Below are positions 6,848 to 51,500 of a DNA stretch of 64,000 bases, piece by piece (the first letter of the stretch is position 1; each line of letters starts with the position of its first letter). The notes under the pieces were generated by a model. The model was not told where the DNA came from. It made no database searches and was given only the letters and a program-made list of their open reading frames with translations. The translations under genes and the position numbers were made by a program. Origin of the DNA: Phoronis australis (Eukaryota; Animalia; Phoronida); contig NMRA01000439.1 of NCBI GenBank assembly GCA_002633005.1, positions 248,001-312,000 on the forward strand, read 5' to 3'.

Positions 6848-8753
6848 CAAAAATTGTTGTTGAAAGTTTCAAAACTTTTTTTATCTTTCAAAGGCTGCAA
6901 CTGAAATTCAGATCATTTTTAGGGCAGAAGGTACAGGAGTTTTCAAAGAAGTTGCCGATATAATTTCTTTCTGTCAAAAATTTGCCAAATTTCGAAGGAT
7001 AAATTACTGGCCAATTGTTAAAATGATTTTAGTGATATTTTTTATTTGGTTTCCTGGTGTATTTATGACCTAATTTTGACACACCGAACCAAGAATTGCT
7101 ATTTTTATTTTTAAATTTTCAAGAAACATACAAAGTCTGGCAGACAGATGTTCGGTATGAACATTGCCAAGATCTTTTTGCCGAGACGGTGCCACGTTTT
7201 CTCCTCAGATGAGTGACCTGAGTTTTGCTCACTACAATCGGGTACGATGAGACTTGGCTGGCATCAGCACGAATCAGGTTTTGAACTTGATCCCTCAGCA
7301 GAGACAGTTAATATGCGTCTCTGATGTCCAATTTGGTTATGGCTGTCCACTGTTAAATTTTTAATTCATGCTGTCACAGACGCAACAAAATTAATTTTGC
7401 CTTCATCTAAAGAAAATATGTTCAAGTAACCTCGAAAAAATCATCCAACAATGAGAAAATGTGAAGAGTGCAAAAAGTAACGGAACCAGCACGATGCGTT
7501 CTCCTTGTAAAACTGCTTTCTGGAGAAACTTGACACCCCAGACGTTTACTGCAGTTACTGAATTAGGCACAACGCCATGACCCAGACAGAAATTGCGAAC
7601 TCAAAGCAGCTGTTTTGGCCACAGGAAAAAATTGACAATGAAATCTAGCAACAAAAATGTTTACTTTCAGTTACTGCTACACTTTACTAAAAAATGCCGC
7701 TTAAATTATTAACAATTGACCGTCTAACCTCCATACTCTCACTTTCTTCCCATGCACAGCTACAATATCGACGACAATGTCTTTTTTACGGAAAGCCTGT
7801 GAAGCTATCAGCATAATGAATTGTGGGAAACCAACTAGCATACACACAGAGGAAACTAACAAAATTGGTGCATAATTCTTACGTACCATGTAGCCTATCA
7901 CAGATATAGTATACAGTGAGAGACTTAACGTTTACTAAATTAAAATTTAACTCGGGTTTCGCCCTCATTTAAATCGGCTTGCATATCACGTATCTCGATA
8001 TAATAACCCACAGTTATCATTGCGTATGTTATATAACATATATTTACTGCTAATGAAAATAATTGTAACTTACACCTGAATAGAGGAGACAGCAGCCAAT
8101 CAGTATAGGGGCATATGTGAGCAAAGGGCGTTTCTCCTCTAGGCATCCATTTATACAGGAAGGCACACTGTCACGCTAACGCCACCTAGGACATTGCCCA
8201 TTGTGTATTTTGCTAAATCAAGAGAGCTGGTGGTTGATCAAACAAAGCCAAATGTAATACACAACAAGTCTGCCACACAGCTCGAAGGATTGCCTTCACA
8301 GCAGTCAGAAGCATACTCAATAAGGCGGCGAGCGCTCGCAATCACTCTTGATAACTAGTTTGCTTAGAAATCCAAGATGGCGTCCAACCTGACCTTAGAG
8401 TTTCAAGACAATTACCTATAGGAAGGACAGTGAGGTACACTTAGGGGGTACACTATGAAAGAATACCACAATATGCACACGATTGTTGTCGTCAGAAGGT
8501 AATTGTTGTAAATTTGGTACAGAAATAAACCATTTAATTTAATGGCTGGCATAATAAGTTTGCTTTATACTGAGTATAGCAGCCTTTCTTGGTTTTCTGG
8601 AGCAAAAGCACGCTACAATAGGGAGCTCTCGCTTTTGGCACTTGCTCTCAGTTTAGGTGGGCACGTTCTCCATTGAACAGGGATTTGAACTCGGGAACAT
8701 CCAAAGAGATGCACAATATTTTCATCATGGTATAAAAATAACCTGAAACTTAC

Positions 8754-23900: not shown

Positions 23901-26900
23901 AACAGGTAGCATTTTCCATCCAACGCCTTCCAAGAGTCATTGTCCGGAGCACAGCTACCAGCTGACAAATGAGGAACAGAACTAGTCAAACTGATGGTAC
24001 TTAATCGAGTTAACATCCATGTTTTGCTTAAAGCCCATCAGCGAAAAGTGCCAATCCCTAATTTCGCAACTGAGACCTGTTCCAAACTGCCCAATGGCAT
24101 GTCTTTGTGAACGCCATGCTGTCTTAACCCAAATGTACAAAACTTTTACCGCTTACCTTTGATAAATAAACAGTCAAGAGTTTTGGCTGCACCTCACCTT
24201 ATACATCTGGGAAAATTCCTGTAGTCTCCGGCAATTCATCAATAACTTTGAAACGAGGCGGGCACGTTTACCTGAATCAATCGTTCATGTCAAAACAACC
24301 TACCGCCGACTTCTAATTTCTAAATGCCCATGGCCGGCTTCACCCCCGCCATGATTTCTAGCTCCCTCATTTAAGCGTCAGGGCTTTAATCAGCACTGGT
24401 ACGTTAACACAAAAATAATATGAAAAAGGAATTGAGCACCAGCTCTATAGTTTCCGTGAAGTTGAACATCCCATGTCAGTACTGGCAGACAATCAGAGTT
24501 CTCAAAGTCACGGTGTACAAAACAACGACTAAAGTGTAATAACGTAACATAAAACTCCAACAAAAAAGCTTTTTTATGGCGACAAAGTGTGACAGAACTG
24601 CTCTAAGTTTGGCAGAGTCTGACAGTTTGGTCAAAGTGTAACATATTATTAAGACCTAGTTTTTACTCATCTCACTGGGTTCAATAAGTCCCTAATACTA
24701 ACCACAGACACGCACTAATTGTTGCAGCTTAGCCGTTCCACAACAGTCTACTAATAAACAGACAGTGTATGTATGTCTCTCCTGACTGAAAGATTGTTTT
24801 AAAAGACATGCACACAAAGTGGTATTGCAAGACGACGATTTCTACTTACGGGGACCGGCCGTTGGCGGTGGTGTGCCTGGAGTGGTGAGAATAAGGTTGA
24901 AGTCTGGAAATTACAAAATGGAATTTTTTAATTACTTTTAGCCAATTCTGCCAAAATAATGAAATTTCATAACTGACTATGATTTGTGAAATGTGTACTG
25001 ACCATACGATTAATGCGAACAGGAAATAGTTAAAAACCACCTAAAGAGTGGACACAAATCACCAGATACATTCAAACCAGTTTTTGATAAAAAACTATGC
25101 GTGGACACCATTTTGCTATCTAAAGCAACTTCTGCAACAAAATTTTTTAAGTGTAACTGTTCAGAGAGATTTTAATCTCTTCTCGGAGTAAAAAGATGGC
25201 GACAGCATGGTTACATGTTGAGACAGCAACCAGAGTAACAAACGCAGTTAGAAACTAGCCAGAGACGTGGACCTTACTTACTTCCAATGGATATTTCTTA
25301 GAGCAACATTATTGGTTTTACCGCCAAAAACCCATTTTTGCCATTATTGTTGGATGGGATGAGGCTTCTTAAAGTTATTAGCTTAGACAATGGCTAGCTA
25401 GCTATAAAAAGCAAAATGCATTTTTTGTAATTCCATTACAAATCGCCAATTCTCACTGCTGGCTACCAAACAGTTGCTGAAATCAAGGCTAATACGTGTT
25501 TTTACTATTTAAAAACACTAAAAATACATTGCTACTTAAAGTGTCAAATTTAGCACAATGGTAGAACGTTCGACTAGCTACTGCGGAGCAAGCAGGTTGA
25601 TTGAGTCAGCACTATATACTGCTAACTTCTTTAAAAACATTTTCTGATCGAGAATGTCCCTTTAATGCAGCGCATAAATTGACGATTCTGTTCACGCCAC
25701 CTATTGAGGCAAGGTCTTCAGCAATAACAAACAGTTCTTTGCAAGCACAGCAGTCTTTAAATCTAAAGTTGCACCAAGGAACAGGTTGAGATCAATTCGG
25801 AAGTGGAAACCAGATCTTACCACACACAAAAACCCTTACCACACAGCCTGAATGCCCTTACACTGCACGCCCCAGTTCCTGCCTGTTGTGTTTTGAATCA
25901 CTTGCACTAAAACTACCCGAAGTTGTGTTGGAGTACAGGTTATGTGGTGAGGTTGTGATCCGTGGCAATAGCTTTTTGTGCACAGCACATTTTTGCGGTG
26001 TATGATAGGGACGGTTTCCACCCCTTGAAGTTCATGCTGGTAAACACAAACAAGAATGGGTCGTGCACTTAAACAGCCTTAGTGTGATTTAACATGAGAA
26101 CTTTGAATCCACACCTCTCCTCAGTTTGCAAATCCAGTTTCGCTTGTTTCCACAGAAGTTGTCGTTCCATTTGCCGTTCCAGACGTCCATCTCTGCACAA
26201 TTCTCATTGTTGTTGGCGTTGTTCGGCTCACCCCTGTTCCAGTTGGTGAAGTCAGATGGCGACCCGTCCGTCCACACGTACCCTTTCTTACTGTCACGGT
26301 TGTTAAAGCCAATCCAGTAACTGATGGATGAGCCTCTATATCTACAGTTGTATGGGGAGGGGGTGAAAGACTTGAAAAATATTGACTGCTTAGAACAAGG
26401 ACAAATGAATTGCCCCAATACTTCACTTCTGTGTTGAGCAAAAACATCTCAGCTTGCCCTAAGTACACTCCTTATACTCCTTGAGAGGCTCTGAGTATCG
26501 TCATTGTAGAATTATGGCAACAGGAATCATCAGAGCAAAAAATATAATTGAACAAGCCAACAATAAGACGCAAGTGGAGATTCAGAATTTCAATTTGAAG
26601 CAAGTCTTGAAAAAGTTAACAAAGTTTACAGCTTTTTGAATTTGCTTGACAATGTAAGACAAAAACTAGAGCTGCAATTTGCCCTGTTCAGCTAGCTATA
26701 AAACAGAAACTAATAAATTAAGTTCGAAATCATAAAAAATATTTTAAAAAAACCTATGATGAAAAAATATTTCAAAAAAAACATCTATGCTCTCCTCCCC
26801 AGATATGAAACACTCCTAGAAAACTTAAGTGTTAAGGGAGAACTTCACTTTATAATAATTTCTCTGAAAAACACAAAATCAAAACTGAAAACAGTCACAA

Positions 26901-29900
26901 TGGTTGTGAACCTAGGATATGCACATGCAAGAGTTTGAAATCTGAAAACTTTTCCGTTAAAATATGGCATTGAATAAGGGACCTTGTGCTTTCACCATGA
27001 AGAATAGCTAGTCCACTAAAATATATTGAGACAACAAGTCAAACACTGTATTTCATGCTCAATGGCTATAACATGTAGTCTGTGGTATTTGATAAAATAT
27101 CAACATAATATTTCTGATGAAAATGCAGTTAGTAAAACATGCATGTATGCTGAAAATCCACATTGCATACAAAAATGCCAGTGCATACCAAAAATCCAAG
27201 AAAACGATGTTGAGATAACAATTGCAATCTGCAAAAGTATAACGTGGCAAAACTAAATCACAGAAGAAATTAAACAGAAAATTAAATCAGGAAATTGACC
27301 AGCAAAACTTCTCATTTGGATGAGAGCCATGCACAAAAAATGCACACCCATCAGTCTATACATCTGTCTGTCCGTCTCTCCATTAAGAATGTAACATAAA
27401 AGTTTGTGAGGCAACACTGATCAAATTCTCAAGAGCAGTGGGAAACAAACGAAGGAAACAATGCATTATGTTTTGAGGACGCCGTCGGCCATCATGTCCC
27501 TTACAGCTTGTTTAAAGCTGTAAAACAATGGGATACAACAAACACAACATGTCTTGCTTTTGAAAAAGTTAAAACACCAGCTTATTGGCTGGACAAAATT
27601 ACGGTGGCTAGCAAAGACTATGTGGCAACTATAAACTTGTAAGTCAATGCCAGTCTTTCTTGGTTTTGTTGTATCAAATGACAGACCCATTAGCCCAGGC
27701 TCCAGGGAGCACTGATGCATTGAAACGTGTGTAGACCAATCTGGCTCCCTGCGGTGACTGAAGCGTAAATACCAAGCAGAACATGCATTGCAGCACTTCT
27801 GAACGCCATTTGTTTATTAGAAATAAACAACAACAACGATAAATTGTGACGAATATGACAGCCATGCACGGAGACACTTAGTGGAACTGACGTGCTGAGG
27901 AGATCATGATGGCAATGAATGTGAACGTGCGTCTGCGCTTGCACTCAGCGTCCATATTCTACACCATCATGTTCAATGTGAAAGTTCTATAGATGTTGAG
28001 CACAAAATTTTGTGCTTGCTCATCATGAAAATCTTGTGCCTGTTCAATATCACACGTACAAAGTGAATGTTGGGGCCAAATGAAAAATTCTGCACACAAT
28101 CATTTAGTACGAAAGTCTGGTGCAAATTCAATCAAATTAAACGTTTCTGAACCCGAATTGGAAAAATGGCACACGTGTTCATTGAAAAAGTTTTGAGAAT
28201 GCTCAACATGAACATTCCACGCATGTTCAATGTGAACGTTCAACACAGTCATGTTCAATGTGAACATTCTGTGCCTACTGAGTATGAACACAATGTACCT
28301 GAGTGTTAAGTATCAAGATTCTGTGTATGTTCAACATCAAATAAATTAATGTTCGTTGCTTGCAGAACATAATTAACATTTTTTGCTTGCAAAACATAAA
28401 ACATTCTACACTTTTTTAATATGAAAACCCTATGCATGTTCAATGTAAATTCTTTCAGAACATGTTCAACTTGAAGGCTCTGTGAACGCCAAGCGAGAAA
28501 ATTCAGTGCCTGTTCGGTGTTACGATTCTGGGCATGTTCACTGTGAATATTCTGGGCATGTTCAGTGTGAATACTCTTGACATGCAGGACATGCAATTAT
28601 TCTTTATAAATATGTACGTGTTCGCAATGAACATTCCGTGAGTGTTCTACACGAGTATAATTCATGCATCCCATGCAGATATCTTACGGCCAGAAGAAGT
28701 GAAACCCAAATAATCGTCGTGGCCATCGCGTTTTTCCCTGCCGTGCCAATATCGCTTTTTTCACTTTCGAGAGTTCAGTCCAATTATGAAAGCTGACTAA
28801 ATCACCGCCCTGATTTAGACAGTCGGAGCGGGCGTCTACCCAGGTCCTGCGTAAATCTTGGTTGGTAACGTAGTTGATCTAGACACAGAGGTAATAAATA
28901 GAAACAGTTTAGATGTAGTTCAAATAAGACAACATACACCTGCTTGAATAGTGACTCACAGAACGTGCTTTCTCCAGAAATCGTTGTGATAGGTTGAGTT
29001 GTGAAAGCTGGCAAGTTCTGCACCCTGTTTCTGACAGTCGGAGCGAGCGTCGACCCATGTCTTCTGAGCATTCACGTCGTCTGGCTTGTTAACCTATTCC
29101 CATGCAAAATTTGAAACAAATACACACCTTAAACTGAAAGAGTATTTCGAAGGTGACAGCAAGTTGGTTTTAATTTTAAAAATCAATAAGAAGCTCAAAA
29201 AAGATTTATGATGGGGCCAGGAGACCCGTGTCCCACTCTTACGTGTCGGCATTCCATTTTGAGGACTATATTCAAGATTTGTCTTTTGAAAGTTGCAGTG
29301 GGAAAAGTACACCCTACATTAATGATTCGTGTGTAATTCGGCAATATATGGTTACCTTCATCTTTTTTGTGCTTCATAGCTTAGCAATTGTCAGATGATA
29401 ATAAAAGTTAATCTTTTTGTTTTGGCTTGTCTATAAACTTCATGAAATGAATTGAAATGCAAACCATCTTAGACAATACTAGATGTTTCCAATTGATGCT
29501 TTTTCAACATGACCTCAATATTTCTCAAAATAGTAAGAACTATTGCACTTTCAAGTTTAATTCTGAATTTAAGACAGAGCTCCCTCCAACAAAATGACAG
29601 CTGGAATGAAACTAATTTTCCATATTTTAGGAACTTGGAAAAACTGTTACTAAACAGTACACCAAATACATACGAGATAGTAACTTCGTTAATAATTGTT
29701 CTTGTTTTAGCTGAATCTTGATGTTATCGCTCAGGAGAGTTTAATGGCACATTACATGGTGTGATACAACCAGTTTTTGTAAACTTTGCAAAACAAGATA
29801 TATTATGATTTCAACTTTTCAAAAGGTTGACCATGCAACCAGTTCATTAAGCATTAAGATTCAGTAAAAGATAAAATAAACTCAGCAATGAATTTTCATA

Positions 29901-32900: not shown

Positions 32901-35900
32901 CCCAGAAAGTGCTAGAAAGCTTATGTATTAGTATCTGGGTATCAGTTCTTCTATAGTATCTTAAGTGCGTGTTTGAATGTGGCGTGGCAACTTTTGGCGA
33001 CCTGTCATTTTTACAAGGTCATCAAACCAGGCCACCAAATCGAATCCTGAATGACCTGTTTGTGGAAGTACCACAGCTGTCACTACAAAATTACTTTTAT
33101 TAGCCACAATCCTGATCGACATAACCATGACCACCATACCAGCATACCTCTCTAATCACGTGAACGCAGTCTTCCTTCCTGCCTTGCCAGTTATTAGGCT
33201 CATGTGAATTCCATTTGGTCAAGAGTACAGGCGACCCATCTGACCACTCAAAGTACATGGAGTGGTCAAGGTCGTTCAGCCCGATCCACACATTTGTTTT
33301 GGCTGTAGACAAGTGGAGGTTGTCAAAGTCAATTCATTCTGTTCATGTGTTACAACCAATATTGTTATAAGTGACAGGAAAATTGCTCAAACCCTATAAA
33401 CATTAAAACAAGTTATCATTTCTAATAACATCCTGTTTTTTCCTGTTTCGTAGAGTGTTACTGATGTCTTCCAGGATATTACTATCTTTCTGAGTGTAGT
33501 ATGTTTCCAACAGGCAGTCCTGTGAATGAATGATGCCAAGTGTAAAAACTTTTTTTGACGAGTTTCACAATAAGTTTTCACGTGTTTTCATATTCCACGG
33601 GTTTTCCACTTTAAAAATTTTGTCTTTTGCAGATTTTTTAAAATCACGACAAGGTGTTCTTAAGTAGTTTTCACAGCTCCCACTTGTCAAAGATTTTGTC
33701 CCAACCTCACCAATACAACTTAAAATAATGACCAGAACTGACATATTTTAAATTTTTTTAAAGGCTTCTAACATCCTAGTGTGAATAACCATTTCACAAA
33801 ATATTGTGCAATTTTATGGTAGCAGTGGCATAAAAATTGCTTCTTAAATTTTAGGAAAACAATAATCTGTATCACTAGTTGGCCAAAAGTGTCCTAAATT
33901 GATGAGATTGAACCATGATAAAGTAAGGTGTAAGCGGTGGAAACATCCCTTATTAATATTCGATGACAGTCATATTTGCATAAGGTGTTATGTGAAGGTA
34001 GTTGGGAGTAAAAAGAGGCAGAAAGTAAGGTTGGCAAATATCATTTGTTAAGCACAGTAGTTCAAACCAGAAATAATGTGACAAAATACAAACAAACACA
34101 TTATGAAGATGGCTGCTGTTCACGCAATTTCAAACTCCACTTACCACCAGCTATCATTGAAGTGACAAAGCTATACTCCACAGGTGTCACTACAGAAGCC
34201 AGGTCACCGCCCGCTGATCGGCAATAGTCCCTGGCATCCTGCCAACTTTGTAACGGATCGCCAACAAGCATGTAACATGAGTCGCCATTAGGAGTCCAAC
34301 CGTCAGCGCAACGCAGAGAAGTAGGAGCTATAAGGAGGTCAGTGTTCAGGTACAGAACAAGTCCGTTTCTCACTTCATTCCAATTTGGTCGACAACCGCA
34401 TTTTGGGCTTGGAGGGGGTAACTAGTGCATAGTGGCTTAGAATACAATTTACTAGGCTGGTTCTATTGAGCTCACAGCACCACAGGTTTGTAAGCAGAAT
34501 TAAAGTGGCAGATACAAACAAAACTTATTGCCTGATGTCAATCAGAAGTGGTTTCTAGGCCTTGGAAAAAATGACTGCTTGTTATTGCTCAAGGCGATGC
34601 TCGGCACATAAAATGGGGCGTCGTGTCACGCCAACTTGTAGAGTGTGATCTCGAGCAAGGACAAACTGACAGTTATTACCACATCTAAATATTACTTCCA
34701 ATTTGACCAAGGAATAATCTGAGACCAATTTCTTAATAGCAAGTCGTCTAACCCAAAAGTTGATGCCAAGTTTATAGCGGTTTAAAGCTTTCTAACAACA
34801 AAGTTGGGTTATGTAGCTTTAATGCATCAATCAGTTAATTGCCATGAGTACGCTTCTTACCAATTCCGGTGCTGTAGATGGTGCTTGCATACGAGCCGCC
34901 GCATGCACCTGTGGTGTTGACAGTGTTGGTGCACGGATTAGTGCACCGGTTACTCACACTGTACTTCCCGTAACTGTTACCACAGTAACAATACTTGGAG
35001 TTTTGCAGTCCAGCATACATGTAACCCTGGAAACCACATGCAGTACAGAGTAGTTTTATTACACCGTAAACAAAATTTCAGAAAATTTCCACTATTCGAG
35101 CAGATTTTTCAGCAAGTGTCCTACCGACTGGCTCTTACATAGAACTACATATTAAGTTAAACTGGTTCCACAATTAGATGGCATTTTTTAACAAATTATT
35201 CATAATTTAAGCAAATACAAGAGCAAACCTTACTGCTCAGAAAAAACATATTTAGGCAGCAAGATGAGATGAACAATCTTCTTGAGGAACAACTGAAATA
35301 ATTTTGGATTAAATTCCTTCTACTCTACTTCATGATTTTGACAACACTTGGAACCTAGACATTAATGTGAAACTGTTATTCAGGTCAAATCCAAGGATGT
35401 CCAAACATAAGAAAAGCCAAGTGGTGGGTGGGAAATGAAACTTAAAACAAAACATGATAGTTTAAACGGGAACTTTAGAAAAATTCAGGAAGTAAATGTA
35501 CAGCCAGACTTAGGCGCAAGATACCGTGCGTGGACAAGTTTTGAATGCCGCGCCGAAACCAAATTCAGTCAGCAAAATCTCACCAATTTAGGACATGGTG
35601 GACAAGTGAAACTTTATGTAGGAAGAAATAAAAACATACTAATCTTAATTTCAACACCACAGCTACCAGACAACGCTTTGCAAAAATTGTGGACATTCAC
35701 AGCAATGTTAGAAGCCTTTCAAAAATTAAAAATATCAATTTACGTATTATTTTTGTACAAACTGTGAGATTTTACCAAAAGTCTTCTGAAATGAGAAGAG
35801 AAAGGGGAACTCAGACACACTAACTTGAAATGAAAGCCAACATAATAGTGACTGATGAAAGTCGAAGTTAAAATGCTCACATTTTGAAAGCAATGCCGGA

Positions 35901-38900
35901 TGCAGGACATAGGCCAAATGTCAAACTTGGGACTCCAAGGTTCAAACGGGAGGTCAGGATCGTTGCGTTTGTCCTCGTAACAGCCAATCAGGATATTCTT
36001 TGTGTTCCCCTTAGGAATGCCTACAAAGATACACAGCAGAATTCAAAATCAGCAGGAAACATTCTGCCACTCCTTAGCATTGTGAACACAAAAGGTGCCT
36101 TTCGATTGACCCAATTTCCAACTATGGCATGCAACATGGGCCGAGTTCTTAGGGAAAAAAAGCAATTTGTTTCATTCACGGATATTTTGAGACGATTATC
36201 GTATTTACATGAATTGTTTGAATATCTGCCTGCGAAACATTGTCACTCTGATGGCATGATGGTTGCAAAGAATTTATAGATAAAAGGTGAGAAATACCTC
36301 ATTGCATAAAATTCATACAAGAATGTAAAACACTGCCCACCAACTACTCTAGCGCCATCTAGCAACAAGGCATACTTCATCGCATTGCAGCTACATCTGT
36401 TAGCGGCTATTGGCTGTACATAAGTGCTAACAGCACACAAGGGGGCTGGGTTTATCATTCATAACAACGAGGCATGTCGCACAGGCAGTTCAACCTACCG
36501 TGACAACCGTAGACCTCCCATCTGAGAGCTATGAACTTGTTGAATGTGTCTGGGTATAGGCGGATGTATCGGGCAGTGAACGGGCTCGACAGCAGGTACT
36601 TGCGAATAGTCTGCGCATCGTTGTTGCCAGTAAAGATCTGAAATACGTGTGCAATAAAGTATTTTCAAAAGTAACTATGAAGCGTGCTATACAGCGCAAG
36701 CCAAATGCAGACAAAATGACCCGGTATTCTACGTCATGACTGCTGGGTGGAAGTAGTCTTCCCTCATGACTCGGAATGAACGAGAATGAACAGGAAGTAA
36801 GTAAGGTGCCAAAGTCATTCTGTACAAATATTTTCGCTGCCCTATAGTTATTAGCACTATTTTTTGCTGTTAACAGAATTAGCAAACACGACAGCAAGGA
36901 AAATGATATTTTGTCAGATTACACATGTCTTAAATTGTATTGGCCCAATATAAATGAACATGATAGATGATAAACAAAAGACTGCTAAGACTGCAAATTA
37001 GTTAAGGTCTGAGAAAGTCAGTTTTGGAGTTTGCTGTTGTGTAAGATAGACTTTCTGAAGTTATTAGCTTTAATCATGCCTATAAAACAACAAAATAGTA
37101 GGTTTTGTCAGTTTTATCAGAAAATCAGTTTCCCGATATTGGCTTCCACTCACTTTGTAGATGAATTAACGGAGATCAAGGCCCATGACCTTATCTGTTA
37201 AATAAACTTAAAATACTAAGCACCTGGTTGGTTCTTATAGCTATTGCAAAGTGTCGGACGGCAAAGTCGGACGGTGCTGAGGTCGTGGGTTAAAGTCCAT
37301 CTCTGAGCTGATTTCAAAATTTAAACCATGTCGCCGCAAATGTCACTTTTAAGAGAAATGTTACCTTTTTAAAAATACTTTCATCCAATTTGGCACATTT
37401 TACCTAGACTATGAAAGGTAAAATTTAATCTTTCAGTCAATTTATTAACAAACAGCATGAAATTATGTACCTTGCGTTTTCCAGCCTCCTGGTATGAGTA
37501 CCATGTCTGACCATCGTTTCTGTACATTATGTAATACGTCTTCACCCAGGCATTGGTTCCTGTTCTCCCTCTGGTGGCCACTCCAGTGATGTACAGGCTA
37601 ACTTCAAAGTCTACCTGCAACAACACAGTCAAACACATTTGAAATTACACAGAACTAAGTACAATTACCAAGATATTGTTAAATGTAAAGTAATGGTCAT
37701 TAGGTGAATACCGCGAATTTAAAAACCGGTCCCATGTATGTAGCCATGCCAGATGCTTTGTGCACATCTAAACGACCCAGTTTTCTCTTGTGAAAGTGGA
37801 GACAGCATCATGCTGAGAGTGAACTTCCGCTCCACGTTTGGTTGACTCGTGTTACAAATCAAACTTGCCTGAATTTACTACTGAAACTGTTTCTGGCCAT
37901 TTTTGTTGCTACTTGGTGAATCTGTCTTCATTGTAAAAAAAGTCCACAATCCATTTTTGAAGCATCGAACGTGGCTCAGAAATAATAACGTTACTTGTGC
38001 TAGCTTAATTCAAATCCGAGTCCTCCAGCGCACAGTTCCAAAACAAATGACTTACAACATAAATCTGCTGCCATGGTAATTGATATGGCCTAAGGCAAAT
38101 CATTGGAGGACCTTACATGACTTGTCTGTTGATCAGACTCGTGCTTAACAGTCACACTTCAGATCACCTAACGTATGTTTAGTGACTATTCTAACAGGAT
38201 GTGGAGTACATGTGACCTCAAAACTCTTAGTGGGCGGGGCCTGAAAACTGATCACACTGACCTGGATCCATTGTCCTCCACTGTCAACCTTGGGAGTCCA
38301 CGCCCCTGGCAAGCCATTGGCTCTGACGGTGTTGAGGCGGGACCTGGACGGAGTGTGAGCATTGGTGTATTGTGAGCTGGCTGTCAGTTGAGAGTCCAGA
38401 ACCTTGTGTGGTCCATCAATCAGAGGAATGGGTTCACAGCCTGGAATGGGAGGATGTTTAGCCTGATTGGTCATTTCACCCGTCAATCATGTAACAAAAT
38501 TCACAAAGTTGCGCCCATGAAACAAAGAAATATTAGAAGGCAAAGTGTTAATATTTACAAAATTTCTACAAAAATTTCATGCTTTTCATGGTATTACTTT
38601 TACCAAAATGACTATAAAGTCCCTAAACTTATATACATCTGGGTGCAAAAGGACAGGTTATCTAACAAATCGTGACAGCAATCATTCCCTATGTTTAGCT
38701 GTGAATAATCTAGAACCGACGTGGAAGTATAGATCACGAACATCTTTAAGTCTGGCCTGCACACCACTTGTTGGCCACGTCATGTGACCTTATGAACTTA
38801 AGTCTGGAAAGACTTCTGCCCCGACCGGGACTCAAACCCGGGACCTTCTGCTAACTGTGCAGACACTCTAGTCCACTAGTACTGCTGAGCCATAGGGACT

Positions 38901-41900
38901 TATGTTCATTATAGGTCACATTATGTTCATTATAGGTCACGTGATGTGGCTAACAGGTCACATGCACATCAAACTTAAAAAATGTTTGTGAAGCTTAACA
39001 ACGCAACTGAAACTTAGTTTTTTAAAATAAGGGGATATATCGACCTGACCAGCCAAATGAATGCACGGTCACTTGGTGGAAATCGATATCAACAGAAGGA
39101 GTTCAAAGAGGGCAACGTTGTGACCTATTGCTTGTGTTACGTTACATCATAAAATCATGCAATTTTTGGAAATTCTTCTACAAAATCATACATGTAAATG
39201 TGCATATAAAACCTTTTTCATGGTGTACCTGCAGTCAATATTGTGTTGACCAGCTACAGTATAAACTTGTTGTAAACAGATTGCTAAAATCACTGAATAC
39301 CAATTTGACATTCCTCACCTAGAGTACAGCCAATCACGTCGAACCTCAAGGAGACATGAGACACAAAGGTCGAGGGGTAGAGTCGCACATAGCGGGCAAC
39401 GAATGGTGACGCAAACATATTGACCACTGTCGAATTCTGATCAGTGTTGCCCGTGAATGCCTGCAAGTATTTATTAGGTTAGCGAGTGTGCAAATCTAGA
39501 GTAACTATAATGTAATCACCAAGTTTAGCAGATGATTCACAAGATACTAGCTTCAAAATGTGATGAATATTTTCAGTCATCCAGTTGAGTTAATTGTATA
39601 AAAATAAATCAATTACTGGACTTACGGTTTACTGAGATGGCTATGTTACGGAGAGGTGGTTCAGGAGAGGTGTCAAGGAAGCAATTTAATATAAAGCAGT
39701 TGAGAATCCTAGCCTAAACAGACAGGGGGGCCTGAGGTTTCTGTTGCCAAGGACGTGGGATGGGGCACTAAAGAGTATCCCGCATAAACTGTGCTATGGA
39801 TCACATGACGAGTCACGTGACACCTCAGTGGCGTGATGAAAACCTCAAGAGAAGGACGTAACGTAGCCATCTCAATAAACCGTAAGTCTAGTAATTGATT
39901 TATTTTTCTAGATAAGCTCCAAAATGTCTTATCTAAAACAACTAATTGAATATTGAGAGTGTTCAAACAATAACTCAGCTCCCTTTGCAACTGTCAAGTC
40001 ACTTTGGGATACAGTTAAGTTACCGATACTTCATTTGCCATTTTTACAAGAATGTACAAAACGCAGATTTTTTCTCTCACTTTTCAAAAGTACAAGAAAC
40101 TGAACAACAGAGATAAAAATTAAGATGCTGTTTTTCTCACATTTTCATTTGTTGGTTGAGCTCGTTAGCTACATCAGCACCGTTATTACATAAATGCCCA
40201 AATGTTCACATCAAAGAACCCTGCGATATCAAAGCCGTGGGAATTTTGTTACAGTTTTAACATTTTGAAAATTAAATAAAGAGTTGAACTTTGTATTTTC
40301 AAATCACCATTTCACACAAAAAATAATGCTAATAGCAAGCCCACACTTGTGAAAATGACAACAGCTTTGAACAGTGCTCTAATAAATAAATGTTGTATGC
40401 TCACTAGCCAAACACTAGCGACATCTTGTGTTGTCCTACAAAATTCACTACCTCATCATAAGTGAGTACCACCCACAACATAATCCATCACACACAAACA
40501 CCAGCCTACCTTGACCTGTCCAAAAGGCTCTTGGTAAAACGTGGGCACCGTCTCGCCAGACTTCCAGTACGCCACCTTGTATGATGTGACCCACTCCGGT
40601 GCGTCACTACGACCCTGGGTGACCACCCCGCGGATACGTAAATCTAGACCCAGGTCAACCTTAAATAACAAATTGGGTGAACTAGTAGGAAAAAGAATAC
40701 TATCTTAAATACCTAAGGCAAAAACATTTTTCTTTCACTGACCTTGGGAGACACAGAAAGCCAGAAAAGCAAGTTCCCAAGAACCGACTATGTTAAAAAG
40801 TTGAAAATGATGGGCCTAGCAAGGTGGCCACTGTTTTTGCTTCAGAGGATGGTGTTTTAATAAACAAAGAAACATGTCAAGCCAGTTTGAATCCATCGTT
40901 GTTTTTATTAACAAATGCAACAAATTGCTATCATGGAGATGGACAAATAACTGAGCAAACAGCTAATCATAAAATTAGAGTACCATCAACCATAAAAGTA
41001 AGATGTTTTATCAAACCTTGCATGGTTGTAATAAAATTTATAGGCTGGACCAATGAAACTTTGTTAGGATTACAGATTTTTCTTATAAGAAATACTGTAC
41101 AATTCTATTTTATTATAGAGAGAAAGAGGATAAAATGAGATGCAAATTACAGAAAAATAGATTAACTTTTTTAGTTCAAAATTCATTAAGAGATTCATTT
41201 AATTTTAATTTCAACACAAAGGAGATACCTGAATGTATTGATTACTAGAACTGCCAGAGGACCAGCCCCCAGCTAGGTTGTTACTTTTCTGCATATCAAT
41301 ACGCCCACGGGCAGCTGGACTGGTACTACTTTCACTAGAGGCAGTCAGGGCACTGTCATCTGCTTTCACATCACCGTTGACAAGGTATTCTCCAACGCAC
41401 TCAGAGTCTGGGAAAAGTCAACATTAACCAACAACTGTCACAGAAACCACGACAGTAAACACAGAGACCACAGAGCAACATGAGGCTGATCTGAGAGAAT
41501 GTGGTGGTAAAAAATTCTGTCAGGAAATTTTTATTTGAATACAGCCAAGGTCAGTGAGCACCTCGGAATGAACATGGTCGTTTTGATGTTCTTTGCTCCT
41601 TTGCACTTAAGATTAAGTATTTTAATCCTTACAACACAATTTACATGGCTGAATGCAAAAACGATCTGATGTCAGCCATGTAGTTCTTATGACAATGACA
41701 AAACATGACTACCTTGTTTGGTAATTTGACCTAGATAATTAGCATATAATTTGACCTAGATAATTTGCAGGTAATTTGACCTAGATTATTAGCATGATTA
41801 GAAAAAAACTGTAAGTAATACTAACATTGTCAGGATATTTGATAATCAATGACATTATACATTCTGCCTGGCAATCGTTTCCTGATTGACCAGTGTATTC

Positions 41901-44900
41901 TATAGAGCCAACAAGCAGGGCTGGTTCTGGTCTGTGGTATCCCAACTCATTTTGAGACCAGTGCTCAGCGACCAAAAAAGCAGGATTTGCCAAGCAACAA
42001 GTCCCACATTATTTTTGCTCGTCTCAGGTTGATTTTCTTGTTTTTTTAAAAAGTGAGCACCTAATTTAATGCACCACCAATTTTATTTTCAAAAAAAAAA
42101 CAACACAGAACCAACTAATATGCTTCTTTTGGCCTCAGCACTAACAAAGCAAAATAGGTTGAGCGCAATAAAACAAGAACACAGCACTCTGCTTCGCGAC
42201 AACTGGCATAGTTATTTTGGCAACCAAATACAATGCCAGCATGGCAATTTGTCGTAACTACGGGATATGGAATGACCAATGACAAAGAAGAGGAAAAATT
42301 TCCAGGTGATGTATCGTTCCACAATAAATAGGCTTGTGTGATAGAACTATTTTTTTATTTTAAAATTTAACTGAAATATACGTTTTCATGAATAAAGTCA
42401 AAATAGTGATAAAAAGAGACGAAACAAGAGGAAACTGGAAATCAAATAAGATGAAATTGAAACCACAAAAAGAGGAAATCCACATAAAAGAGGAAAATTC
42501 CAGGCCCTGTAACTAGTATGGCAGTGAGTCTCTTTCAACTTCGGTAATATCTTATTAACTTAGGACATGAAGAAACAATACTTTAAAAATTATAGTGAGC
42601 ATTCACAGCAATGTTAGAAGCCTTTGAAAAACGAAAATGTGCAATTTTGTGCAAATTTTTTGCCTGAAATTGTCAAGATTTTACCGTATTCGATGAACCT
42701 TATTTCACCAGGGGACGCCAAAGTTCTTATGGCACATGAGAAAGAAAAAGTGGTACCTGCGATGCATCCCAAAATCTCCCATCTCAAAGAAGGCCTGTTG
42801 TTCCAGGTCTCTGGCCTGATTCTGACGTAACGTGCCTCGAACGGGTAGGTCAGGTTGTGCTGCACTTTTGTACTTCGGTCGATATTGGCTTTGAACATCT
42901 ACGAAGAAATGACATGTGACCGAACATCGTGACAACATAGGATGTCCCTAACACTGATGCCTAAGACTGTGTAGTTTGAATCAAAATGACTATGAAGTGA
43001 GCTAATATACTTTAAGGATGCCTTATGCTTCAGCAAAAGGAGTGTTATATTATCAGGTCAGGATTAAGCCAGTCGCTCGTGAGACCATTGGGTGTTTTGA
43101 GTTTATTAATTGCTTTTTGACAAGTGGCAATGAAATTTTGCTCTTGTTAAACTGCATGTCTTGTGTACCATAATGCAAATCTGTTAATGCCCTCTGTGGA
43201 TAACTCATGTGCAATGTGGGTACTACATTAACATTATGTTGATTAACAAAAATAAATAAAATAAGATTACAAAAACTGCTTTAAAGTGGAGGACAGAGCC
43301 AGGGGGGTCAACACCCTTTGTGGAAATGCCAGTTGTGTTAAGAGAGCCCAGAAAATGTTCCAATCCATGAGGTCAGCTATGGTGCGAGTGGCCTGGGGGT
43401 GGAGTTAAAGTACTCTGTGGAAAGTTCAATTGTGTTGTGAGACCCCAGAAACAAATTCCATTCCATGAGCTAATAAGGCAACTATGGAAGGCAGGATCAG
43501 AGGCAGGGATAGCACTCTCCATGGAAATGCCAATCGTGTTGTGAGACATCAGGACTTCATAAAGTGGGTGGAGCTAGGGGCGGAGTTAACACCACAACAA
43601 ACCTTGACAGTTCCTACAGGATCCTGGTAATGCGTCCACCTAGTGGAGTCCGCATACTTGTATTCCATCCAGTAGCTGGTCACCCATTCATCGGCGTCAC
43701 TGCGACCTTGCGTGACCAGACCTTTTACCACAATGGGTACCGAGAAATCTGCCATTATCCACTCAGACTTGGATGTTGTGGTCTTCGGTGCCCAACCCCC
43801 TCGGTCTGTGGAAGATATTAAACTCAAACATGGTACATGCATGGGCAACAAAACAAGAATAGATCATACCAATTATTCACTGTGATCAAGCTTTACAACC
43901 AAACAGTATAGGCAACAATTACCAATTTTTACAAAAAAATAACAACCCCAACATTATGGCACAATTCCAAGTAACAATAACTAATAATCAGAATAAATTA
44001 TAAAAACAACAATTATAACACTCATAATAGTACAAAATTTAAACAATTAATGTCAATGATATAATGCAAAAATAAAATTAATGGTATTTTAGCTTAGCTC
44101 AACCCAGTGAAAACAAAAACTGAAAGGGACTTCAAACTCATGTCTGTTAAAACCTGCCAAAATTGTGACATTACACAACACTTTGTATGGATCATTCTAG
44201 AACCTGACTTCCATTCTTTTGTTCTCAATGTTTCTCTTTAACAACCTCAATCAGCTATACAATACTGTTTACTATAAAGCTTTACATACTTAAGGGGTTG
44301 TCAAACCGCCAGGTGCCAGCTATTCCTTGTCCAGTGTAGACAGCCACGCCCCCGACCTTATAAGGAGAAGGGTCCTGCCAGCTCATGAACACGGAGTTAG
44401 CGTCCAGTGGATTGTCACCAGTGCCCACCTTGAAACAAGAGAAGTAGATGATAATTATCGAGCAATGGTGCTGCTTTGAAGCTTTCATAAATCATTTTGA
44501 TTAAAATCAATTAATATCAAGAAATAGTGAAAACGAATCACTTTTAAACAAAAATGTTAACTATATGTTGATTTCCTTGAGCAGATCATAATGTGCCCAC
44601 TAATCATAAATCTCTGCAAAACTTTATATGTATTAAGACGACAAGAAAAGAAACAATATTTCTTATTTGGTCAATATTCAGACAACAAACCAAGTTTTAC
44701 TGAGCGAGAACACAGTAAAGAAAGCACACAGATCTATCAACAATCTCAGTCAGCACCCCAGCTTCCAAACAAACCAATCATGGACGTTAAAGCAAGCCTA
44801 AATTGTTGGTAGTTTGTTATTGTGTACTGTTACCTTGATGAAAGCTCCCGCCCAAGAGATCCAGAACTTCTTGAATGAGTTAGCACTGACCATGGAGCCC

Positions 44901-45477
44901 ATAACAGAGGTCTTGGGGTTGTCTTGTATTGCGTTGCGAATCGCACTTTTACTATTGCCCCAGCCTCCAATGACTATTTCGTATGACGACTTGTCGGTCG
45001 AGCTATCGGGGTCGGCCTTCAGGTTAATGTGGGCATCGCTGGTACCTGGGGCAAGAGGTAAGGGATATAACCAGGAGAGAGCAAGGGTGGCAAATGTAGC
45101 TTCAAAGTTGTGACAGTAAGAATTCGTCACTTAACAAAATATTCAACAGTGTGCTGTACAAGATGAAATAAACCAGTTAAGAGTCACTTCACTGTCATGT
45201 GATCACCTACCCTTGAACTGGAATGTGATAGAGGTGGAGGCCAGAAGGTGGAGACCGGTGACAGGGGTGTAGTCCGTCTCATCTCTGGTGTTCAGGGTAA
45301 TCACTCTCTGCGTACCTATAGGAAAGGTGTAGACATATGAAAACAATGTTCGGGTACATAGACGTAACTGATAGGCGGTGAGCGCGGGACTCGCCCCCTG
45401 ATTCGGACAAAACAGAGAAAAATGTAGGCAGGCTCAGAGAAAAAATAAGGGCTGGGAAAAGTCATTAATTGCCCCAG

Positions 45478-45510
<33 letters not shown>

Positions 45511-48500
45511 NGTATGACATTTTTTTGTAGTTGTTCCAAAACTTTAATGTAACTTCACTGGTCCACTTATGAGAACTAAACCAATCACCAACAAGGGTGC
45601 AACTTTAAGCCAAATCTCTTACCAGCAGTGGTGAAATCCAGCCTTGAGTTTTGAGGTCCATGATTTATGTCAATTGAAGACGAGGAAGTGATGCGGTCAT
45701 CTGTTATCCAGTGGTTGCCTGATATCATGGCTTGGGCTTCACAGTCAGTTGGTGTGACAGAGGTGGCGAAAGGTTCAGTGGAGGGGGTAGGAGCATTAGC
45801 TGGAATAGAGCTGGTTGATCAAGCTTTTGATGTGACTTAATCATTTCAAACATAATTGTATATATTAAAGTTATATAAAATAATTGCAGGTGGTTTGGTA
45901 CATTGTGTGTACCAGATGTGCGCAGGCCACTGAGGTGGACCCATTGCACAGATCACCTGGAACCGATTTTATGCTATTATTAATATAAAGACAAAACCGA
46001 GCTGAGGACCTGAAGACCTGATTAGAGGATGTACCCTAGAGGGACTCGAACCTACAAACTTCGGAACATCCAATCGCAGAAATGGCCAATCAGATTCACA
46101 TGAAACTTTCATATACTACGCTTTATACACTGTTTTCTGAACGCTGTTTGGAATTGTTTTTAAAATGTTCCACTTTTGCATGAGGGGCTATGTAAATAAG
46201 ACATATATGATCTTTATGAAAATTTTTTAAAGAAATACAAAATGAAAATGAAACACTAATTTAGAAACCTGTACCAGGGTTTTTGAGATTTTATTTCAAA
46301 CTTTTATATCATACGGAACTTGAACATGTTAGTGATCCTGTTAATTTGCTATGAATGCACCTTTCTTTTTTGCTATTTTTTTTAAAACGCAAGGTCACAT
46401 GACCTAACTAGTGCCGGATTGGTATAAAGTCAAAAATCAAAATTCTACGGAATTTGCACTTTCAGAAAATACATACGTTTGCTGAGGTAAATTCCACAGT
46501 TTTGTAGATACAAAGGCTAAATGTAAAGACTTGTCGATTGGTCCTACATAAACTTAAACCAGCATAAAAAGCAGCACTATCTAAATGTGATTTATATCAC
46601 ACAAATGAGTGAGCACACGAAATGATAAAACATTTTTTAAATAAAATATTCTAGAAATGCTAGATGCAATACAGAAACTCACTCAAAAATGAATTACTGA
46701 TGCCATGCCTGCTCCGTTTGCACTCAGGTATAATTAATGCACTTTTCTGCCACCTATTCACCTCCTCTGAATACAATGTGCTCCTTGCAGAAAACAACAT
46801 CATAAAATAACTCAGTAACAACACCACACTAGAAAAATCTTCTCAAGAATCTTTTAAAGCGGTAATAAAACAGCTTTTTTGTTTGGACCATTTACCGATG
46901 TGAAACTGATTTCAGCTTGTTCCCAACTTAAAAGTGAAGTGGTTTCTGGGCTTTTACGAAAGGGAGAACCATGTTATTGCTTAAGACCAAGCATGCATAG
47001 AGCACCAAATGACCAGTTATGACAAGACAACTTAGTGTTGCCTAATTTCAAGCAACAACAAAGTGAGTCGTAACGGTAAACAGATTAATTAATCTTGCTT
47101 TTGTGACTTGAGACAGAGGACAGAAATTTGGTCTTACGGCCCCACGTCACCATCGCTGAAAAAAGGCTTAGCCAAGTAATTACGAACACATCACAGACTA
47201 GAATAATTTATAGAAATTATCTCTACTAACGTCTAAGTGAGTGTATATTCTCAGAGATTTTGCATTTTAGCTCAAGTGAGATTGAAATGGTTGTGTGAAG
47301 CCTGAGACTAACTTTCTGACTTAAGTCACTTTCCATGAAACAGACCTCAGGTTTATAAAAGACTTAAATATTCAAATTTGGGCGACAGGTGTTGTACGTT
47401 GCTAGATAGTAATTAGGACTCCCAAGAAAAATAACTAGGACATAAGTTTACTGTGACAGGTGTTCTTCAAAATTATTGCTGAATCAATTACCAAACACAA
47501 GCCTGACTTACTTGGCTTCTCACAGATGTAGCGGTACTTGCTGAAACATTTGGCGTCGTTCCATTTCCCACCCAAGAATGAGGCGATCACGACGCAGTCT
47601 TCACCGCCGTCGTAACCGTTGGGCTCTCCTGAATGATTAACACAGGTGAAAATAAACAAACCAGGTACTAAAAGTACACAAAGAGTGTACATTTGATTGG
47701 TACGTACTAAGTAAAATGTCGACATAATACGGTACAACCATGGACTCCTTGGACCAACAAATAGGTACACTGACACAGAATGATTAAGTGACCTATCGCA
47801 AGCTCTGCACCCTTGTAAAAAGTAACCGACAATTGTTGTTCGTCTGGTAAAATGGCGACTTGGAAGTAGATGAAGGTGTGTCAAGAACGATGCCTTCTGA
47901 TTGGTCAGCTAAAATGTCAATCAAAATCCTGGCGATAGGTTGACCCCATAGCTCATTGGGTTGACCTATCGCAAGCTCCGCCCCCTTGTGAAAAGTCACT
48001 GACAACGTGTTGTTTGTCGGGTAAAATGGCGGCTTGGAAACTGTCAACGAACCAGCAATTTCTGCTCAATAAACATACCATAACAGGAACCTTTTTTTTA
48101 CTAACAGAATGTGTGTGATTAAAAATGATTAAGGTGTTGAAGCTTTTGAAACTGGGGAAAATTTTTTAGAAGAACAGAAATTGTTCATCCAATTACACGC
48201 ACTGTGTGTTTCATTAGAAATTTTTGTGGGCATATTTGCAAATGTACCTCCCTGCAAACAGCTTCGCTACAGGTACCCTCATTCGGCAGTTTGACCGAGT
48301 GTGGGTCACTCATACCTGGATGCCAGTTCAGGTATCTGAACGGTGATCCATCGGACCAGCTCCAGCCACCCTCAGCTCCGAGGTCGTTACCCCCAATCCA
48401 GAAGTTCCCGGCGCTCAACACATAGGTCAACATGATACCTAGGAAAGTTCAATAGGTAAAATTACAGGGAAGAGATGACCACAGAATGATCTGTACAAAA

Positions 48501-51500
48501 TTTGGTATAATCATCTCTGTCAAGTACATCTACACTGAAGCCTGACAAGTTCCATGACAGAGAAAGTAATATAAATATATATTTGCATCTGCAAAGCTTA
48601 GAATCTAATTCTCTCAAGTCTTTCCTTTGTGCTTTGTCGACAAGACTACTAGGATCTGTCATGGGTGCTCATCCGTAAGATGATACGTGGCCCTGGTGAT
48701 TTACCCCTGGTAGACCTACCAAAGATTACTTTCTCATATTGCGGAAAATTTATATGGAAAACAGGACATCTGATTAGAAGGTAGGTCATCACTTAAAATG
48801 AGTGCGATCTTCCGAGAAATTGACAATAACATGCGATAACAATGGGTGAACAAAGTCCAACCACGTCATTGGACGATAAGAAGGTAAGTCAGACATCTGA
48901 TGAGCGTTCAAATGGGAAAGCGGATCAGATATCTGATGTGTCTTGTGATTGGATGGCATGTGAAAGCTGCATAACTGATATACTGGAAAAGAGCCCAGCA
49001 TCAAGTAATACAAGTAAGGCATCACTGTACAAGTAATGCGCACTGCCACGCTCCTTGAAAAAGGGAATTTAAGATACACTGTGAAATGGTCTAAATTTAC
49101 ATCTAATTATTATCAGAATTTATACAAATACATCCCTTTTTAAAGATGATTCAGAATAATTGATACCAATTTGCATTAATTTAAATATCACCGAAAGGTA
49201 TATGTGATCAGATAAAAATATGAGTGAACACATATCATTCACTTAACACCCTTGACTAATTCTAAGCAATCACAATCACGATACATGAGTGCCATGGAAG
49301 TTAACCTGTCATGAAGGTCTGCTCATGAGGCGTGTTGATGCTAAGTAGTTCACCGCCCTTTGATTGGCAAGAAGCCCTAGACCCCGCCCATGAAAGGAAG
49401 TCATCGCTGATGTAATAACAGTTGTTATTGGTTGAGTCGTACAGCCAATAGGGTCCACACAGAGGAGACCAAGGTCCTGGAAAAGTCGTATGCATTCAGT
49501 TGGAGAGGATTCTAGTGACCATGCAAATCCATGAAAACATTGTTTCCATTCAAACAAAGCAATATATTTGCAAATAATGTTGAGCTCAAGTGCTATGAAA
49601 AGCCTCATGTTATGTAGACTTTTAGTGAAAAATAAAAAGCATAGAATTATTGACAATTCATTGGCCACTGCTTGACCAATAAAATGCAGCCAAAGATATG
49701 TAGCTCCAATTAATTGGTCAAGCAGCCAATAAAATGAACCTACAATTTCAGTTTTGCCACTCCAATTTCTCAAAATATAATTTGATAAATCCTTAACAAG
49801 GACAAAATTTGGTTTGAACGTGGAGTCAAGAAGTGACGAAAAGTTTTCCGCCGATTTTCTCAACTCTGAATGAATCCACCAGAGGTCACACAGGCTTAAA
49901 AAAGCCACAAGAGGCTGGCAAAATGCTGCCTTTCATCTCAACCAAGTTCAGCTATGACTCATAATTTTCTGCAAACTATAATTTGTTTGTATACAACTGG
50001 ATAAATATTAAGGTCCATCAATATGACAACAGCATATCTTGAAAATCTGAACATTAAAACAATGACTATGAAACATAACCGATAACAACGCTCAAATACA
50101 CAACAAATCAATGGAACGTCATTTTCAACAGAGAACAAGAATATTGAAATCTTACTNACTCTTGTCTACTTGCTCAAACTCCCAAGTCACGTTTAACTGC
50201 CACTGGTTCTTTTTTCAAAAATATCAGAAAAATAGGAAGACCGTTAAAGCAACTGAAATTGTGAAAACCTGTTTTTTAAGTGGCCGTGTGCAATTGGAAT
50301 GCAGTAATGATCAGAGCAATAAGTCTTCACTTATTTAGCACACAATACGAGGGACAAGTGAAATTTTATTTCATCAAATTTTACAGCAATTAAAAATTAT
50401 TAAGAAAATTATGTTCTGTTGTAAGCTTGGTCTATAACGTGCAAAGTATTTGGTAAATATGTAAGATCTGCAACAAGGTAACCAGCCTTTGAAAAATATC
50501 AAAACCACTTTTTGGCAATTACTTTTGTGCAAAATAAGTGAAAATTACAGTATTCATCAACTGGAAATAACATGAAAAGAAAACTAATGTAAAAAATAGA
50601 CCATTTTCAGGTTTGTGCTATGAACAATTTAAAAAATCTGGCTTACGCTTTTCAACATAATATGAGTAGGAAAAATCGAGCTTTCCAACTTTTATTTGGC
50701 AATCATGGAATAGTAGCCATAGGAAGTGCAAACAACTGTATGTTAAAAGTATCGTTGCGATTTCGGTGGATCGACATGAGCAATACTCACTCGCTGGTTT
50801 CTTGCAGACAAAGCCCATTTCCCTGGCGCACGAGTTGTCATTCCACATTCCAGTGGTCCCTCCAGGACCGTGAAACTCAACACAGTTCTCTTGTTTACTG
50901 CTTGGTTCGCCTGTACCCCAGTTTTTAAAGGAGCCCTGCAATTATACGCGACACAGGATTTCCATTCTCCATGTTTCCACGAGTTAAAGTGTCCATAAAA
51001 ATGCGTTCTGTTCAAAAAGCAAACTTTTGATCAACTTGGCTCTTTCTCAGTTGAGAAGTGATTTAGACCACTTAACACAGACTATGAAAGTAGTCTCAAC
51101 TTGGCTCCTTCTCAAATGAGAAGTGATTTCTGGGCCCAAAAAGAACCGACACTTCCCTATTCTTTAAGATCTTACTCAGCCCAACAAATGACACGCCATG
51201 TCAAACCAACTTGTATAGCTTGCCTCGAGCAACAGCGAACAGTAAGTTCTTTTGAAGCCCCAAGATCATCCCCAATTTAACTATAAGGAACAATTTTCAT
51301 AACAAAAGTTTTTCATGGAAGGCTGGCTTAGGGCCACTTTACATATTGTACCGGAAAAGGGGAATAAAGGAAATATCTTGCCACTGATTGTTTCCAGGCA
51401 GAAATGATATTTGGGTATTTTTATAGACTCAACTATCCATTTGTTTTTCTTCCATATGTGTGCCTGTACACAATTTAGCCAAAACAGTAGACAATTGGAC

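Follow-up and report, generated by a model that had tools for sequence, protein, structure and literature searches.

A FAMeT domain nested as a three-exon cassette within a discoidin domain of a Phoronis australis lectin gene

A three-exon FAMeT cassette within a discoidin domain

The 64,000 nucleotides of Phoronis australis DNA analysed here (contig NMRA01000439.1, positions 248,001 to 312,000; the window) contain a long animal gene on the minus strand that has many C-type lectin exons and, in mid-gene, three discoidin (F5/8C) domains and a WSC domain. We confirm that the first of these discoidin domains (domain 1) contains a three-exon cassette, exons 18-20, which encodes a FAMeT domain (PF12248) and lies in frame inside its host (Table 1). 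This arrangement had been proposed from the letters of the sequence, and our splicing analysis bore out the coordinates of exons 17-21, their AG/GT sites and the phase 1 on both sides of the cassette. AG/GT sites are present at every exon from 17 to 22, the introns before exon 18 and after exon 20 are both of phase 1, and the spliced exons 16-29 form 722 codons without a stop. The splice sites of the cassette are as near to consensus as neighbouring sites, and its GC content of 0.53 is so close to that of its neighbours (0.51-0.52) that there is no sign of recent foreign origin. It is the single FAMeT copy in the window.

To Pfam, the reading frame of exon 19 is a PF12248 domain from profile position 28 to 106 of 140 (E = 2e-16; 60.5 bits for this exon alone, compared with a curated cut-off of 24.2), and the frame of exon 20 continues it from 98 to 139 (E = 1e-4). 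The frame of exon 21 matches PF00754 at positions 22-83 of 127 (E = 5e-11) and that of exon 22 at 86-127; the frames of exons 17 and 18, taken alone, have no Pfam match. When we applied local F5/8C and FAMeT profiles, built from other sequences with these exons excluded, the spliced form was resolved into F5/8C positions 3-39, FAMeT positions 3-140 of 141 (126 bits) and F5/8C positions 43-154 of 155. The insertion point is therefore between positions 39 and 43 of the 155-position F5/8C profile. All 13 near-invariant core residues of FAMeT are found in the cassette (13/13), and together with the profile span they show the domain in exons 18-20 to be complete, as had been claimed. The split F5/8C match expected on either side of FAMeT was recovered with the local profiles, whereas Pfam was silent on the frame of exon 17. 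Splicing and the nested order of the profiles both support an insertion of one domain into another.

The identity of exon 17 as an F5/8C N-terminus had been set beforehand as a test, and it withstood it. Aligned with the first exon of the paralogous domain 3, exon 17 scores 70, which was reached by none of the shuffled sequences (0/2000), and its best matches among solved structures are the F5/8C N-termini of neuropilin-1 (E = 0.015); the similarity to the first exon of domain 2 is weak (score 36, reached by 42/2000 shuffles). Splicing exon 17 directly to exon 21, which removes 456 nt, leaves an open frame without stops and yields a full F5/8C domain (138 bits, profile 2-156), in agreement with the original prediction. 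In length, the loop of this skipped form is intermediate between the loop of neuropilin and the loops of the paralogous domains, and the length of the loop is variable among discoidin domains.

We take the insertion loop of domain 1 to be the same loop as spike 2 of the binding face of factor V. In factor V, according to a passage of PMC11098723, Arg43 is located at the tip of spike 2. An insert at such a site, in a nesting that no relative among 265 proteins shares, raises the alternative that FAMeT folds but the F5/8C pieces around it no longer make a working discoidin domain. We consider such a broken domain 1 improbable, because both of its halves keep the family pattern, with the two terminal cysteines, and can be aligned over their full length with domains 2 and 3, and because the other hosts described below also keep both halves around the same FAMeT insert. 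Exon 21 (43603-43805) passes through the site of a phase-0 intron that is found in domains 2 and 3, which implies that domain 1 either lost this intron or has a different origin.

Table 1. Exons and other features at the FAMeT cassette, with positions counted from the first letter of the window
Feature	Position	Strand	Description	Basis
Exon 16	47512..47628	-	Last part of the C-type lectin domain that precedes the F5/8C block	Pfam, splicing
Exon 17	45623..45799	-	177 nt; Thr/Pro linker and the N-terminal piece of F5/8C domain 1 (profile 3-39); phase-1 donor at end	
Homopolymer	45478..45511	.	33-base G run and a single N within intron 17/18, where the assembly may have been joined	
Exon 18	45211..45315	-	105 nt; first part of FAMeT (PF12248); phase 1-1	
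Exon 19	44834..45045	-	212 nt; FAMeT core; phase 1-0	
Exon 20	44290..44428	-	139 nt; C-terminal part of FAMeT; phase 0-1	
Exon 21	43603..43805	-	203 nt; F5/8C domain 1 resumes, from profile 43	
Exon 22	42757..42898	-	142 nt; end of F5/8C domain 1	
Exons 23-25	39319..41407	-	F5/8C domain 2, uninterrupted; comparison copy	
Exons 26-28	36499..38440	-	F5/8C domain 3, uninterrupted; comparison copy	
WSC domain exons	34838..36020	-	3' limit is that of the reading frame, with no mapped splice site	
Next C-type lectin domain, two exons	33139..34334	-	Phase-1 intron at the hemichordate FAMeT insertion position	

Integrity of the assembly

Intron 17/18 contains one N adjoining the 33-base run, no read bridging this N is among the joints listed, and the window has further signs of imperfect assembly. 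These features would be in keeping with a cassette misplaced by an assembly join, or with one that is part of another transcript lying inside an intron. We nevertheless regard an artefact of either kind as very improbable. There is no N between exons 18 and 21. Whatever happened in intron 17/18, the remainder of the discoidin domain thus follows FAMeT without a gap, and this continuity, the register of exons 17 and 21 (profile position 39, then 43) and the agreement of the intron phases at both cassette ends make misassembly unlikely. The window also contains as many F5/8C first exons as domain bodies, three of each, and a scan of intron 20/21 revealed no start, stop or AATAAA/ATTAAA signal that would separate the cassette from what follows.

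Transcription of the cassette

To assess transcription we used RNA reads from three runs with the same species label (~18% of each) and one contig set, over positions 36300-48600. The cassette region is transcribed on the gene's strand, and stranded reads on that strand cover it in three runs. Depth per exon base, on the assumption that no reads are intronic, was 7.2, 5.7 and 2.5 in the cassette and 12.2, 9.1 and 1.8 in the flanking exons (8 bins), which corresponds to cassette-to-flank ratios of ~0.6, ~0.6 and ~1.4 in three runs of low depth in which short exons are under-covered. The cassette is likely included in most transcripts. The 15 of 65 joints listed all fall in repeat-rich intronic stretches, and no exon junction, whether of skipping or of inclusion, is among them. 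Three intronic repeats (42268-42509, 46076-46440 and 47870-48042) are abundant in the RNA reads on both strands, and the last of these resembles a ~170-base tandem unit.

The original prediction had further suggested that alternative splicing could switch between a free discoidin face and one capped by FAMeT. A regulated switch of this kind, in which exons 18-20 would be left out together in certain tissues or conditions, we find conceivable but rather unlikely. It would be in keeping with the in-frame skip that restores a full domain, with the intermediate loop length of the skipped form and with the cassette depth of ~0.6 relative to the flanks in two of the three runs, but the third run, at the same low depth and with the same under-coverage of short exons, gives ~1.4, and no skip junction is among the joints listed. 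A precedent is found in insect famet genes, where whole pfam12248 copies are toggled by alternative splicing, as a passage of PMC10015273 describes. In the phoronid gene, however, three exons would have to be dropped jointly, since four of the six partial combinations bring stops (exon 18 alone and exons 19 and 20 together remain open), and the cassette splice sites are not weak. The symmetric phase is no argument for a switch, because it is the normal signature of any shuffled module and follows from shuffling alone.

Relatives and other host domains

We screened 265 FAMeT-domain proteins with the local profiles; Pfam labels were precomputed for 121 of them, and of the remaining 144 we ran 44 against Pfam. 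Searches with exon 19 (4 proteins among 11 candidates), exon 21 (none among 3) and the protein P0004 (117) covered proteins of up to 2000 residues, and the full protein encoded here is probably longer; the HMMER search contributed the best 150 of 349 matches. The best identity to the whole cassette is ~40-46% among the matches listed, and no orthologue is among them. FAMeT and an F5/8-type domain occur together in nine of the 265 (P0009, P0010, P0014, P0020, P0021, P0028, P0031, P0203 and P0232), and none of these nine has FAMeT inside the F5/8-type domain. The Branchiostoma proteins P0009, P0010, P0014 and P0031 carry the same two domain types in one chain as the phoronid gene does, but side by side and not nested. 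In three of these (P0009, P0010 and P0014), the F5/8C domain that follows the FAMeT array is without the first 15 profile positions. The other FAMeT domains that we examined are mostly tandem or stand-alone, and the Atlas search gave clusters of PF12248 only, at a value of at least 0.9. Beyond animals, or next to unusual partners, FAMeT is found in P0094, P0181, P0013 and P0246, which comprise a moss protein of TIR-NB-LRR type, a second TIR protein, a gammaproteobacterial protein and a protein that also has CBM96 and FecR.

As judged from domain profiles, nesting of FAMeT recurs in other hosts. In Lingula, one of the two FAMeT domains of P0015 splits a MAM domain (2-47, FAMeT, then 45-163), which with the insert removed is read as one domain of 218 bits. 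Two hemichordate proteins annotated as 'macrophage mannose receptor 1-like' (Glandiceps P0018 and Saccoglossus P0036) are likewise multi-C-type-lectin proteins with a nested FAMeT, and in each a C-type lectin domain follows FAMeT, taken up at profile position 51-53. The first half of this lectin domain is present upstream of FAMeT in P0018, and the record of P0036 begins within FAMeT. The best match to the split domain in the window is the lectin domain just downstream (exons 34334-34152 and 33291-33139), with 44-58% identity over the matched pieces and a phase-1 intron at the same position. The hemichordate insert differs from the phoronid one in that its host is a C-type lectin domain, not F5/8C, and no F5/8C domains were detected in these two proteins.

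A further case is vertebrate CPAMD8, a member of the A2M family, in which the same PF12248 domain occupies an apparent short loop of a host domain (CUB). FAMeT lies there between residues 923 and 928 of the A2M chain, with flanks that align to residues 898-923 (weakly) and 928-973. Both A2M flanks are present in 66 of the 72 CPAMD8 sequences, and the other six are without the upstream flank. Because Leu917 in A2ML1 numbering is in CUB, according to a passage of PMC9156758, and the offset appears to be 18 residues, the CPAMD8 insert is probably inside the CUB domain; the passages of PMC9363628 and PMC13069473 give domain lists and CUB/TED topology only. The model of a partial CPAMD8 (P0120) is poor (mean predicted local distance difference test score, pLDDT, 47; predicted template modelling score, pTM, 0.29), and its FAMeT part alone is confident. 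In the annotated CPAMD8 forms P0097, P0110, P0117 and P0118, a short stretch immediately before FAMeT is missing, and this suggests that an exon boundary coincides with the start of the module. CPAMD8 differs from the phoronid gene in host fold and gene, and its nesting is conserved across vertebrates, whereas among the sequences screened F5/8C nesting is found in this gene only.

The search of relatives that the original prediction had proposed thus returned, among the 265 proteins, no second FAMeT domain in F5/8C but did return the nested architecture in other hosts. That FAMeT-in-F5/8C is unique to this gene is weakly suggested by the screen, and the case is less singular than had been implied, with FAMeT nested in two and probably three other host folds. 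A search of the literature (titles, starts of abstracts and passages, with subscription journals, structure-classification databases and supplements outside its range) returned nothing on the nesting or the fold of FAMeT.

Predicted fold and function of FAMeT

As a proxy for the fold we used P0157, which matches the cassette best (40% identity), modelled with 52 sequences. The predicted structure is all-beta (pLDDT 93.6, pTM 0.86), with 12 strands and two 4-residue helices. Foldseek matched this model to GH16 glucanases, ERGIC-53 and CBM66 at template modelling scores of ~0.5. A wide fold search placed CBM66 first (Z 13.7, root mean square deviation 3.6, 136 aligned), followed by the lectin-like domains of GH32 and galactocerebrosidase and by galectins (Z 11.8-11.0; galectins 11.6-11.0). 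FAMeT is thus predicted to share its fold with the ConA-like/galectin-like sandwiches (CBM66, galectins, L-type lectins, SPRY) at Z 10-13.7 over 119-140 residues, although identity to them is only 4-14%. The protein P0004 has no sequence match in PDB.

The name of the Pfam family is the only point in favour of a true farnesoic acid O-methyltransferase acting within this protein, which we find scarcely credible. Class I S-adenosylmethionine (SAM) methyltransferases have a Rossmann-like fold and a glycine-rich motif I; the proxy model is all-beta, no Rossmann-type methyltransferase is among the fold matches listed, and the cassette is without GxGxG. FAMeT is predicted to be an all-beta ConA/galectin-like sandwich and not a SAM-methyltransferase fold. 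Farnesoic acid methyltransferase activity was 'never reliably shown in vitro', in the words of a passage of PMC10015273, and both here and among relatives the domain is accompanied by lectin and adhesion domains of extracellular type. According to a passage of PMC9382459, a FAMeT domain is found in six adhesive proteins of sea stars, and the title of PMID 34023375, cited in PMC9358689, calls the oyster FAMeT-domain protein (MFCP) microbe-binding. Arthropod FAMeT, the sea star footprint proteins and oyster MFCP have the same domain as the cassette, but stand-alone or in tandem; in insects its copy number is toggled by splicing (a passage of PMC10015273), and in sea stars its context is that of secreted adhesives. 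The view that FAMeT is a binding module and not an enzyme is supported by the predicted fold; with the published doubt about the enzyme role and the oyster title, it is not wholly new.

Origin of the nested domain

The cassette, with phase-1 introns at both ends, is a class 1-1 module. Another internal module is formed by the FN2 repeats of MMP2, which we take to lie inside the catalytic domain. Like the cassette, the FN2 repeats (class 1-1, according to a passage of PMC3927616) are flanked by phase 1 and removable by exon skipping, but the module in the phoronid gene is PF12248, comprises three exons and has a discoidin domain as its host. Class 1-1 modules as a rule insert into phase-1 introns and can be lost by exon skipping (the same passage of PMC3927616), and domain insertion as such is common, as a passage of PMC2662426 states. 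Exon shuffling, the route that had been proposed for the insertion, is likely in view of the phase 1-1 ends and of the lectin-domain cases with a matching phase-1 intron, and the three-exon nested FAMeT is real and would be a new variant of class 1-1 exon shuffling.

Softer evidence, read from proteins only, comes from the ends of FAMeT domains. The pattern expected from read-through of a phase-1 donor ends 19 of the 39 short single-domain FAMeT proteins, compared with 13 of the 72 domains in P0001-P0040, which are longer and for the most part annotated, and with 32 of 214 sites taken as background. A FastTree phylogeny of 88 FAMeT domains groups the cassette with Lingula domains (support 0.85) and is too weak for the donor or the order of events.

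We propose that FAMeT reached the discoidin loop as a phase 1-1 module, through recombination within introns. The two ends of the module would be close together, so that the insert is tolerated and the discoidin barrel may still close around FAMeT. The inserted domain would give the spike end of its discoidin host a second surface for recognition, with glycans or the surfaces of microbes as probable targets, and may hide part of the discoidin face. A module of this kind may enter introns wherever they lie, and this would account for its presence inside the MAM, C-type lectin and CUB domains of other genes. We assign a probability of roughly 65% to the reading as a whole, in which FAMeT is a shuffled phase 1-1 module in a discoidin loop, forms a ConA/galectin-like binding sandwich and not an enzyme, and is present in most transcripts.

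Several observations weigh against this reading. The insertion loop is free of introns in domains 2 and 3, as had been noted and as exon mapping confirmed, so that a pre-existing phase-1 intron in the host is only putative. No FAMeT inside F5/8C occurs among the 265 FAMeT-domain proteins, the joints listed do not include the exon junctions of the cassette, and neither a signal peptide nor a membrane anchor was located for the gene. In CPAMD8, the upstream CUB match alone is weak (5-6 bits). SPRY and thrombospondin C-terminal domains are close behind in the fold search (Z 10-11), and since the non-lectin SPRY domains score nearly as well, the shared fold shows no function.

A broader proposal would be that PF12248 is a misnamed and so far unrecognised galectin/ConA-like family of glycan-binding plug-ins, which entered loops of at least four unrelated folds (those of discoidin, C-type lectin and MAM domains and, in vertebrate CPAMD8, of CUB) and is moreover splice-toggled on the discoidin binding face in the phoronid gene; in this full form we consider it doubtful. 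A recurring loop-inserting lectin-like module is more interesting than the single discoidin case, which itself is a clean example of a discoidin loop that has taken up an entire domain. Binding to glycans or surfaces is what the predicted fold points to, and the old question of FAMeT function thereby becomes directly testable. The answer bears on work on the hormones of crustaceans and insects, on the adhesives of sea stars and on CPAMD8, a gene of human eye disease for which a variant in the FAMeT domain is reported. Loops that tolerate a 150-residue insert would also be of use when discoidin, MAM and lectin domains are engineered.

Repeats and duplications in the window

Towards the start of the window, a lectin exon/intron block occurs twice (16087-21313 and 22593-27223, ~92% identity), flanking an 855-base N gap, and is either an unmerged haplotype or a tandem exon duplication. 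A 350-base repeat (13977-14326 and 14452-14801, 98% identity) lies beside a 5-base N run, includes part of a lectin exon and is probably an assembly duplication. A ~450-base repeat forms tandem copies near 5.2-6.6 kb (5243-6851), and related pieces are present at 22.2 kb (22169-22596).

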